This document shows, piece after piece, positions 16,451 to 17,967 of a stretch of 64,000 nt of DNA; the first letter of the stretch is position 1, and each line of letters begins with the position of its first letter. The DNA comes from Gemmatimonadaceae bacterium (lineage in GTDB: Bacteria; Gemmatimonadota; Gemmatimonadetes; Gemmatimonadales; Gemmatimonadaceae). The notes under the pieces were generated by a model. The model did no database searches and was not told the origin of the DNA. It saw nothing but the letters and a program-made list of their open reading frames with translations. The position numbers and the translations under genes are program-made. The stretch covers positions 6,435-70,434 of the forward strand of contig DATLBG010000129.1 of the NCBI GenBank assembly GCA_035527035.1, written 5' to 3'.

Positions 16451-17967
16451 TCCTCCCCGTCCGCTGTACCACCAGGCGGACTCTTGTCGTTTTTTTCGCT
16501 ACTGTCACCTCGCGGCGACGGCTGGTTGGACACTTTCGACCGGAGATCGGCCCACCACTGCAGCCGCTTGGCTATCTCCTTCTCGAATCCGAAGGGTCCA
16601 GGCTTGTAAAACTCCGCTCCACGAAGCTTCTCGGGCAGATACTCTTGCGGGATGTATGCCGCGGCGTCGGAGTGCGCGTACTGATACCCCTCGTGGTAGC
16701 CGAGATCCTTCATGAGCTTCGTCGGCGCGTTGCGGATGTGGAGCGGGACAGGCTCGGCAGGCGTCTCGCGGGCCGCATCCATCGCGGCGCCCAGCGCCAT
16801 GTAGGCCGAATTCGACTTGGGAGCGGTCGCGAGATATACGATCATCTCGGCGAGCGGCAGGTAGCCCTCGGGAGGGCCAAGCACGTGGTACGCCTGCCTC
16901 GCGGCGACGGCCACCTGCAGCGCATTCGGGTCCGCCACGCCGATGTCCTCGGCGGCCATCGCCAGCGACCGGCGAAAGATCACCATCGGGTCTTCCCCGC
17001 CTTCGATCAGCCGCGCCATCCAGTACAGCGCTCCTTGTGGATCGCTCCCCCGCAGCGACTTGTGCAGCGCCGAGAGCATGTTGAAATGCCACTCGCCTGA
17101 TTTGTCGTGGTGGGCGAATCGCTTCTGGAGGGCGTCTTTCACAGTTGCGACATCGATCACGCGGCGGACGGTCGAGGGTTCCTTCGGGTCGCTACGCGGG
17201 CTTCGCCCGCTAAGACGCGACCCTGCCGGAACCCCCGCACCGTCCGCCGATTCAGCATCGCCCAGGTGCATGCCGGCTGCTTCCAAAGCGGTCAGCGCGC
17301 GACGGGCATCGCCGTCGGCCTCGGACACGAGCAGGTCGAGCGCGGCGTCGTCAATCGCGAGCTGGAGCGATCCAAGGCCGCGCTCATTGTCATCCAAACT
17401 CAACCGCACTATTTGGCGGAGAGCATCTTCGCTAAGCGGCTCCAGCACGAACACGCGCATTCTCGACAGCAGCGCGCTGTTTATCTCGAACGAAGGATTT
17501 TCGGTTGTCGCGCCGACGAGAGTGATCGTGCCTGATTCGACGTGCGGGAGGAAAGCGTCCTGCTGCGCGCGGTTGAAGCGATGGATCTCGTCCACGAACA
17601 GAATCGTTCCGCGTCCCAGCTCGAGACGCTCGGCGGCTTCAGCAACCACTTCGCGGACACGGCCCACACCCTCCGTTACCGCCGAGAAAGGAACGAACTC
17701 GCGGTCCGTGTATTCGGCGATCAGCCGGCCGAGTGTAGTCTTCCCTGTGCCCGGCGGCCCCCAGAACACGAGTGACCCGACCGTGCCGGTCTCGATCGCC
17801 TGGCGGAGCGGCTTTCCCGGCGCAAGCACCTGCTCCTGCCCGACAAACTCATCGAGCGTGCGCGGCCGCATGCGGGCCGCGAGCGGCGCCGCGGAGGCGG
17901 GGGGCGTGAACAGCGATTGTTCCCTGTCGGCTGCGTTCGCCGAAGGGCGGCGGTGCTTCTTCGGCAT
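16447..17967 (-). CDS. rarA: Replication-associated recombination protein A (AAA+ ATPase RarA/MgsA), carrying an in-frame repeat-derived insertion
   Basis: Walker A GPPGTGKTT, Walker B ILFVDEIHRFN, and the MgsA C-domain LSALHKSLRGSDPQGALYWMARLI...PLHIRNAPT. An extra segment of about 30 aa (AESADGAGVPAGSRLSGRSPRSDPKEPSTVRR) is encoded by repeat copy I. Confidence 0.9.
   Translation of the reverse strand: MPKKHRRPSANAADREQSLFTPPASAAPLAARMRPRTLDEFVGQEQVLAPGKPLRQAIETGTVGSLVFWGPPGTGKTTLGRLIAEYTDREFVPFSAVTEGVGRVREVVAEAAERLELGRGTILFVDEIHRFNRAQQDAFLPHVESGTITLVGATTENPSFEINSALLSRMRVFVLEPLSEDALRQIVRLSLDDNERGLGSLQLAIDDAALDLLVSEADGDARRALTALEAAGMHLGDAESADGAGVPAGSRLSGRSPRSDPKEPSTVRRVIDVATVKDALQKRFAHHDKSGEWHFNMLSALHKSLRGSDPQGALYWMARLIEGGEDPMVIFRRSLAMAAEDIGVADPNALQVAVAARQAYHVLGPPEGYLPLAEMIVYLATAPKSNSAYMALGAAMDAARETPAEPVPLHIRNAPTKLMKDLGYHEGYQYAHSDAAAYIPQEYLPEKLRGAEFYKPGPFGFEKEIAKRLQWWADLRSKVSNQPSPRGDSSEKNDKSPPGGTADGEE
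17162..17249 (+). repeat. Nested-hairpin repeat, copy I (inside the rarA CDS)
   Basis: cggcggacggtcgagggttccttcgggtcg-CTAC-GCGGGC-ttc-GCCCGC-TAAGAC-gcgaccctgccggaacccccgcaccgtccgccg. The outer arms are complementary and the outermost 11 bp pair perfectly. Confidence 0.8.

Follow-up and report, generated by a model that had tools for sequence, protein, structure and literature searches.

A copy of a hairpin-forming repeat lies within an intact rarA gene in the DNA analysed here, a 64,000-nucleotide (nt) stretch of a Gemmatimonadaceae genome (GenBank assembly GCA_035527035.1, contig DATLBG010000129.1, positions 6,435 to 70,434; hereafter the window, G+C content 65.8%). The copy was located at 17158–17249 on the plus strand by its match to a covariance model, a 30-residue indel in the protein and the z-scores of its fold. 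The surrounding rarA (or mgsA) coding sequence (CDS; 16447–17967, minus strand, 506 residues) was identified from its open reading frame (ORF), database identity, Pfam domains, a match to PDB entry 3PVS and its dN/dS ratios. With a probability of roughly 85%, we attribute the arrangement to one copy of a small non-autonomous repeat that inserted in frame into the rarA of a clade ancestor and was tolerated there, its palindrome being kept.

The palindrome proper spans 17162–17249 and reads GCGGCGGACGGTCGAGGGTTCC TTCG GGTCG CTAC GCGGGC TTC GCCCGC TAAGAC GCGACC CTGCC GGAACCCCCGCACCGTCCGCCG. Its left arm (17162–17191, plus strand) consists of an outer segment GCGGCGGACGGT, a middle segment GGGTTCC, an internal loop TTCG and an inner segment GGTCG, and is complemented by the right arm (17217–17249, plus strand); both arms are delimited by their pairing and by compensatory changes, which for the left arm were followed through eight orthologous alleles. 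Enclosed between them is a conserved asymmetric core (17192–17216, plus strand), recognised by its motif as a short-loop 25-nt variant of the 29-nt family core and composed, on the same strand, of CTAC (17192–17195), the stem GCGGGC (17196–17201), the loop TTC (17202–17204), the complementary stem GCCCGC (17205–17210) and TAAGAC (17211–17216). The arms GGGTTCC-TTCG-GGTCG and CGACC-CTGCC-GGAACCC and the outer arms (about 12 bp) pair into one hairpin. The entire segment folds into one nested structure of −37.8 kcal/mol as DNA (z = −6.2, equalled by none of 200 shuffles) and −71.8 kcal/mol as mRNA-sense RNA (z = −8.2, no shuffle being as stable). An earlier prediction, made from the letters of the window, had described a full architecture of outer arms around CTAC-GCGGGC-ttc-GCCCGC-TAAGAC, and both the sequence and the nested fold agree with it. 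The 90 nt from 17158 to 17247 correspond to residues 241–270 of RarA, with rarA junctions that are ambiguous by about 3 nt, and the peptide (...ADGAGVPAGSRLSGRSPRSDPKEPSTVRRV...) matches the translation that had been given for the insert.

Its sequence makes the segment at 17160–17249 a genuine, full copy of a repeat family of the Gemmatimonadaceae. Across the window, CTACG-N(8–28)-CTARGAC was counted six times where 0.07 are expected, each time at the centre of a hairpin of about 90–145 nt. A covariance model (R1) was built from 80 intergenic copies of other genomes, with every rarA copy and every window copy excluded. It matched 17160–17248 on the plus strand with 52.5 bits (E of about 3e-10 by a rough calibration) over model positions 1–93 of 93, the only gap being 4 nt in the loop. 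Searching with R1 also added three degenerate copies (19308–19388, 28254–28353 and 28456–28561), which brings the window to about ten copies in 64 kb. In the family consensus, ...GG(T)ATCCYC-TTCG-GSSSG-CTAC-GCGAGC-AAACTRC-GCTCGC-TAAGAC-CSSSC-TKCG-GRGGAC..., no variation is seen in CTACGC, in the CGC/GC stem positions and in GCTA..AC, and the core stem covaries (GCGAGC/GCTCGC, GCGCGC/GCGCGC, GCTCGC/GCGAGC and GCCCGC/GCGGGC). The rarA copy has the same core, i.e. CTAC, a 6-bp GC stem, a loop, the returning stem and TA(A/G)(G/C)AC, with a loop of 3 nt as compared to 7, and the same long complementary arms with internal loops of the TTCG/TGCG type. Short-loop cores occur at intergenic sites too, for example CTACGCGAGC-TGC-GCTCGCTAAGAC at locus L038. 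An ordinary lineage-specific expansion of a low-complexity linker, bearing only a coincidental likeness to the repeat, would be in line with the variability of the RarA linker between distant homologs (PMC6374455). This explanation is effectively refuted by a full-length 52.5-bit match to a model that never saw the rarA copy, the exact CTAC...TAAGAC core, fold z-scores of −6 to −8 and a linker that is invariant at 24 residues in 111 relatives (see below).

A scan of species-representative genomes yielded at least 105 stretches of this kind. Among the 80 loci listed, all matches belong to at least ten Gemmatimonadaceae species-level metagenome-assembled genomes (MAGs), save three in Gammaproteobacteria MAGs (L015 3062–3086, L066 1043–1067 and L082 2964–2988) that were rejected as chance matches, as they lie in a conserved coding region and have neither a complementary stem nor TAAGAC. 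A metagenome scan for the rarA-type core returned 11 matches, all of them unrelated and due to chance. In these soil bacteria the family is found between tandem genes in 56 cases, between convergent genes in 14 and between divergent genes in nine, and its orientation relative to transcription (22 sense, 34 antisense) shows no preference. Among the roughly 105 copies, the rarA copies alone reside in a genuine CDS; others in long stop-free stretches fall into spurious ORFs of high G+C content or upstream of the true start. An Rfam scan of the window at the gathering threshold gave no match and a literature search on Gemmatimonas repeats found nothing; the nested-hairpin family is apparently undescribed.

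The host gene shows no sign of damage. Its ORF (16447–17967, minus strand) contains neither stop nor frameshift and encloses the whole insert, and a Gemmatimonadaceae protein deposited from a MAG as “replication-associated recombination protein A” has the identical sequence (100%). Pfam matches above the cut-offs (RuvB_N/AAA, AAA_assoc_2 and MgsA_C) place the protein in the RarA/MgsA family, and E. coli MgsA (3PVS) aligns to it with E = 4e-126 in two stretches that flank the insert. Residues 231–268 of the query align to residues 218–229 of 3PVS, an excess of about 26 residues at the insert, which is in keeping with the statement of the original prediction that the E. coli linker is some 25–30 residues shorter. 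The extra residues lie within the Pfam AAA_assoc_2 envelope, directly before MgsA_C. Between insert-bearing alleles the backbone has diverged at synonymous sites by dS = 0.85–1.14, with dN/dS of 0.03–0.07, and by these ratios the insert-bearing rarA is functional and under strong purifying selection. The claim that the insert leaves the 506-residue frame unbroken is borne out accordingly by the intact ORF and the low dN/dS, and the disrupted pseudogene that had been named as a possible refutation is not observed. A decaying rarA, or a palindrome that is an artefact of assembly, is in our view very improbable: long palindromes can misassemble and all data are metagenomic, but beyond the intact and constrained gene, the insert recurs in eight contigs assembled independently from different samples and in three further proteins. 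The designation of rarA as an essential-type gene, on the other hand, has to be withdrawn, as deletion or inactivation strains are the basis of genetic studies in both E. coli and B. subtilis.

The position of the insert within the protein was addressed by AlphaFold (AF2). A first model from 19 sequences was too poor (pLDDT, the confidence score, of 54.5), and the prediction was rerun with an alignment of 120 sequences, upon which the AAA+ and lid part reached a pLDDT of about 85–95. Residues 239–266 were modelled as coil with a pLDDT of about 30, between a helix (221–243) and a strand (269–271), with flanks at about 86–87. In answer to the structural check for a surface loop proposed earlier, the model places a low-confidence coil between well-modelled elements. 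In translation the insert would give a stretch rich in Gly, Ser, Pro and Arg, for which disorder is predicted, and translation through it would cover the predicted peptide GSRLSGRSPRSDP. As a separate observation on this locus, the spacer that separates rarA from a Zip-family gene forms a variable island in relatives (L002 5884–9902, L003, L001 2207–3883, L127 and L128); it holds differing toxin–antitoxin sets (PemK, PIN, HicB, RHH) in some species, and the two genes are almost adjacent in L004 and L006.

Comparison with orthologs dates the insertion relative to the clade. Between GDARRALT and QKRFAHHDK, the linker measures exactly 24 residues in 111 of the 120 closest RarA proteins, as compared to 54 residues in the window protein, P0004 and P0010 and 55 in P0002. 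The clean indel of about 29 residues anticipated by the original prediction is thus found as 30 additional residues, i.e. 90 nt, at one point. DNA was compared for 13 orthologs with 87–93% protein identity, eight with the insert and five without its core; three further insert-bearing members of the same 90% cluster are covered as protein sequences. In a bootstrapped neighbour-joining tree of the 13 genes, insert alleles appear in every major branch. P0004, P0010 and P0126 group with 100% support and P0124 and P0123 with 95%, P0128 forms a separate insert-bearing branch, the insert-bearing P0002 stands next to the insert-less P0007, and the window allele groups with three insert-less alleles at 66% support. 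The five alleles that lack the core have linkers of 34, 32, 29, 26 and 21 residues, each with a different junction and none with 24. Arm remnants persist in several of them: P0005 keeps ACCGTCCGCCGC (TVRR), P0007 keeps GCGGCGGA...TTCGCCGC and P0003 a shortened 11-bp palindrome. An ancestral linker, i.e. close orthologs carrying the same segment without any repeat signature, had been named as a result that would speak against an insertion; the core-less orthologs carry different truncated remnants instead, and no conserved linker. Because inserts occur in every major branch and the core-less alleles represent different imprecise deletions, none of them restoring 24 residues, the insertion is ancestral to the clade. 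The sequences are read most simply as a single gain in the common ancestor of a genus-level clade, after which imprecise in-frame deletions arose independently at least five times.

Conversely, the insert could be younger than the clade, either due to a hotspot that was hit repeatedly at the same site or to one allele that spread laterally by homologous recombination. The dS of the insert (0.09–0.30) is far below that of the backbone, as if it postdated the species splits, and the gene tree is star-like with weak internal nodes. Yet all eight inserts occupy the identical codon position with homologous arms and the same unusual short-loop core, and the block directly downstream shows third-position identities of only 12–15 of 28, which argues against a recombination tract extending beyond the insert. 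As every core-less allele retains remnants or an altered length and never a linker of 24 residues, we consider a non-ancestral insert unlikely.

That the outer arms travel with the element, as had been predicted, is supported by three results. Two arms of some 30 nt do not fit into the 24-residue linker of the outgroups, and rarA must therefore have been without them before the insertion. At 19308–19388 the element is present in three species and missing in two, and the empty alleles hold neither a palindrome nor arm-like sequence; likewise, the recA–recX spacer contains a family copy in L006 and is empty in the window. Moreover, L020 and L074, paralogous copies in one genome, are 81.6% identical over 125 nt by gapped BLAST and share their outer arms in spite of unrelated flanks, and L087 also matches the window copy at 33368 in a gapped alignment. 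Outer-arm identity between paralogs is about 0.3–0.45 when compared without gaps and 76–83% in the best gapped pairs. Since empty sites lack the palindrome and paralogs share arms, the whole palindrome would be the unit that is moved and lost. Several alternatives for the arms were discarded. Pre-existing terminators or other hairpins that received a short core are at odds with empty sites that hold no palindrome, and locus-specific outer arms, suggested by the ungapped comparison, are contradicted by the paralogs with unrelated flanks. An outer arm that is an inverted copy of the target flank was considered on account of ACCGTCCGCCGC in P0005; these residues occur in none of the 111 outgroups, which identifies P0005 as a deletion remnant, and the arms at the 19308 locus are also unlike the flanks of its empty sites. 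No target-site duplication was detected at the junctions of filled versus empty intergenic sites.

Within the clade, the palindrome has been maintained to a degree that the peptide has not. In the eight orthologous inserts, standard pairs account for 95% of the pair cells; shuffles give 89% and slid partners about 42%. Double-sided changes were observed at 11 of 35 pairs, a number reached by none of 500 shuffles (3.8 ± 1.4) and well above the slid controls (1–2); ACGGT/ACCGT, for instance, became ACAGT/ACTGT in P0126 and ATGGT/ACCAT in P0128. In P0010, one nucleotide was lost in the inner arm and one gained about 45 nt downstream, so that the central part of the insert encodes GRVLASEARVATEGSPS in place of the GGSRLSGRSPRSDPR of the other alleles. 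A symmetric indel pair, considered for this allele, was dismissed as inspection revealed a compensated −1/+1 frameshift. Because P0010 reads the middle of the insert in another frame, the peptide is unconstrained, and what is kept is the nucleotide palindrome. The dS of the insert is 3–10 times below that of the backbone, and identity at third codon positions amounts to 22–26 of 28 in the insert, compared to 12–15 of 28 in the adjacent downstream block and 17–18 of 24 upstream; as some conserved rarA blocks elsewhere reach 23–25 of 28, the excess in the insert is suggestive only. Orthologous intergenic copies behave alike in that both arms change together, with 53 double Watson–Crick changes in 18 ortholog pairs. 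G–T wobble pairs relative to the core strand (189 versus 158) and one-sided changes in orthologous pairs are too noisy to discriminate between RNA and DNA level.

These data raise the question of whether the rarA hairpin has been co-opted and is selected as a nucleic acid, be it as an mRNA pausing or RNase III site or as a DNA site for a core-recognising protein, so that the segment is dual-coded. The 11 compensated pairs and the 95% pairing persist across lineages at a dS of about 1, the synonymous divergence of the insert is low, the raised third-position identity is confined to the insert and absent from the adjacent blocks, the intergenic orthologs are compensated as well, and the unpaired CTAC and TAAGAC are invariant or nearly so throughout the family. 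However, the core was deleted in five of 13 lineages at no visible cost to the gene, the high third-position identity has its equal in other codon blocks of rarA, and the copies take no preferred orientation to transcription. In addition, template switching within quasipalindromes alters both arms in one event, also in coding sequences, and makes paired changes in a single step that involves no selection, as reported in PMC8794818 and PMC8604942. Co-option is therefore regarded as possible albeit improbable. A wider version, held to be just as doubtful, has the whole family selected as a structured nucleic-acid element, namely as the site of a protein or nuclease that reads the CTAC/TAAGAC-flanked core, with the rarA segment dual-coded and a mover other than a classical RAYT (REP-associated tyrosine transposase, see below).

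Returning to a tolerated ancestral insertion, the alleles show that a 90-nt copy, its length a multiple of three, was gained by the common ancestor of the genus-level clade, at the point of the rarA linker that follows the last lid helix and precedes the C-terminal MgsA domain. Its survival may be explained by a linker that can accommodate a loop and by selection that lets through frame-preserving events only. What keeps the palindrome would be either template switching within it during replication (quasipalindrome correction), or selection for pairing, or the two together, and the deletions would reflect the instability that long palindromes usually show. Read in the orientation and frame of rarA, the canonical 29-nt core gives ...CTC GCG TAG; the 25-nt short-loop core reads ...CCG CGT AGC and is open, in an element of 90 nt. 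Short-loop cores exist elsewhere in the family, so a variant of this type could have been the donor. Full elements generally leave three of six frames open (45% of the orientation/frame combinations over 99 copies); frame compatibility is not rare, and tolerance by the protein would hence be the real filter.

Some points weigh against the proposed history. Some nodes of the tree are weak (66%), and recombination between lineages could redistribute alleles, which makes the number of losses uncertain. The sequences all come from assembled metagenomes, although the insert is the same in eight assemblies made independently. The low dS of the insert and its strict pairing could mean that the hairpin has a function of its own and is not a passive passenger. 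Lastly, no transposase, target-site duplication or recent identical copies were found, and mobility is for this reason deduced from presence or absence and from diverged paralogs with 76–83% identity. A tblastn search for a RAYT-like gene in about 0.9 Mb, a weak test with an approximate consensus as query and a small part of each genome covered, gave nothing below E = 0.9. The genes enclosed by widely spaced repeat pairs are housekeeping genes (dprA, recX and an asparaginase-like gene), with no transposase among them.

In-frame palindromic repeats are classic for the Rickettsia palindromic elements (RPEs). The original prediction drew this parallel and was aware of no such description for this kind of high-GC organism. 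Outside Rickettsia, intragenic repetitive extragenic palindromes (REPs) of the GTAG and CGTC types have already been described in several bacteria including Opitutus terrae, Thauera and Thioalkalivibrio, many of them located in genes for replication or repair (Di Nocera et al. 2013, PMC3733652). Like the rarA repeat, RPEs are palindromes of 90–150 nt that occur both between genes and in frame within functional genes, where the peptide is tolerated and the host gene is under purifying selection. They differ in host phylum, in GC content and presumably in sequence family, so that the comparison with the high-GC Gemmatimonadaceae concerns the behaviour (in-frame insertion) only. Moreover, many copies are found in Rickettsia CDSs as compared to one among about 105 here, and the rarA palindrome is kept by compensatory change across species with a peptide free to change frame.

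The resemblance to intragenic REPs (PMC3733652) comprises a GC-rich stem–loop, a conserved flanking tetranucleotide, a mostly intergenic location, frequent inverted pairs and scarcity between divergent genes. REPs, however, measure 20–40 bp and carry GTAG 5′ of the stem foot (PMC3333891), whereas the Gemmatimonadaceae element extends over 85–145 nt with long arms and has CTAC 5′ of the core stem. On one strand CTAC precedes the stem, on the other GTCTTA does, and GTAG is located 3′ of it; the core alone takes up 25–29 nt, and the indel or mobile unit with its arms 83–145 nt. Neither rarA nor any Gemmatimonadaceae is mentioned in PMC3733652. With the REP/BIME–RAYT and REPIN systems (Y1 HUH transposases), the family shares the hairpin, an adjacent conserved tetranucleotide and frequent inverted doublets, and the lack of a target-site duplication at filled and empty sites is as expected of IS200/IS605-like single-strand transposition; the polarity of the tetranucleotide is opposite, and the Gemmatimonadaceae arms are far longer and more diverged between copies. 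Miniature inverted-repeat transposable elements (MITEs; Correia/NEMIS, ERIC, RUP and others) are likewise non-autonomous, 70–300 bp in length, intergenic, endowed with long inverted repeats and open to co-transcription. MITE copies have terminal inverted repeats in common and are bordered by target-site duplications, unlike the present family, in which the centre is conserved, the termini are the most variable part and no flanking duplication is seen. Quasipalindrome template switching (PMC8794818 and PMC8604942), finally, would keep a palindrome perfect by changing both arms in one step, independent of selection; it is a mutational process rather than an element family, and its operation at rarA is an assumption.

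The phenomenon as such is known; what is added here is a new and apparently undescribed family, another host gene in line with the preference for repair genes, and an allele series. In-frame “selfish” palindromes are hereby extended to a further group at phylum level and to a further repair gene, which fits the remark in the literature on clustering in replication and repair genes. The series is unusually clean, with one ancestral insertion, eight copies in which pairing is retained although the peptide has drifted, and five different in-frame deletion scars. It can be used to separate selection on structure from homogenisation by template switching and to gauge the tolerance of an AAA+ protein towards a loop of 30 residues. 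In practical terms, so abundant a family will confuse gene callers in Gemmatimonadaceae, three of six frames being open in most copies.

The remaining copies in the window were scored with R1. The copy at 19308–19388 (plus strand, 46.4 bits) is intergenic with a truncated core; L002 and L001 carry the element at the orthologous site, L004 and L006 do not. Another intergenic copy is located upstream of alaS (23978–24070, plus strand, 73.2 bits). A degenerate copy (28254–28353, plus strand, 32.5 bits) falls outside the CDS of the neighbouring gene, whose true start is likely to be downstream of it, and is followed by a copy with a 36-nt expansion of the core loop (28456–28561, minus strand, 41.7 bits). 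Two convergent intergenic pairs complete the set, one at 33098–33190 (plus strand, 76.9 bits) and 33336–33428 (minus strand, 83.4 bits), the other between convergent genes at 40359–40457 (plus strand, expanded loop, 68.1 bits) and 40476–40568 (minus strand, 68.1 bits).

Such pairing is common in the family. Copies often occur as a plus-strand member followed by a minus-strand member, 100–290 nt from centre to centre and with the CTAC ends outward, both in the window (33098–33428, 40359–40568) and at many other loci, including L013 (4144/4391), L018 (1970/2204) and L027 (5348/5636); the opposite order is almost never seen at short range. The two members of a pair have different arms each. Whichever strand is read, the arm on the 5′ side is rich in G and that on the 3′ side rich in C, and the unpaired CTAC, TAAGAC and TTCG/TGCG loops are conserved with outer stems that vary. 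The conservation of unpaired motifs suggests that something reads them. Expanded core loops are represented by the 36-nt insertion at 28456–28561 (minus strand) and by AAACAACAACGAC at 40391–40425 (plus strand), and the copy at 19308–19388 has lost its core stem (CTACGC-TAC-GCTAAGAC). Given these expanded or lost loops and stems, the core loop would be a hotspot for indels.

In the small sample at hand, copies are located beside or inside several genes of DNA metabolism (recA, recX, dprA, the alaS neighbourhood and rarA). The dprA gene is flanked on both sides by family copies at orthologous positions in two species, represented by L071 (5181–6256) and L077 (1981–3063), as is recX in L028. The recA–recX spacer contains a copy in L006 (3300–3392) and in JACDCY (L028) and none in the window (25322–25352), where recX seems to begin directly behind recA; the annotated start of recX may be displaced or shortened by the copy. 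Apart from the family, the window contains a 300-nt direct repeat (373–672 and 1432–1731) with 76% identity at a distance of 1059 nt, inside a minus-strand ORF (282–2489), which is probably an internal domain duplication.

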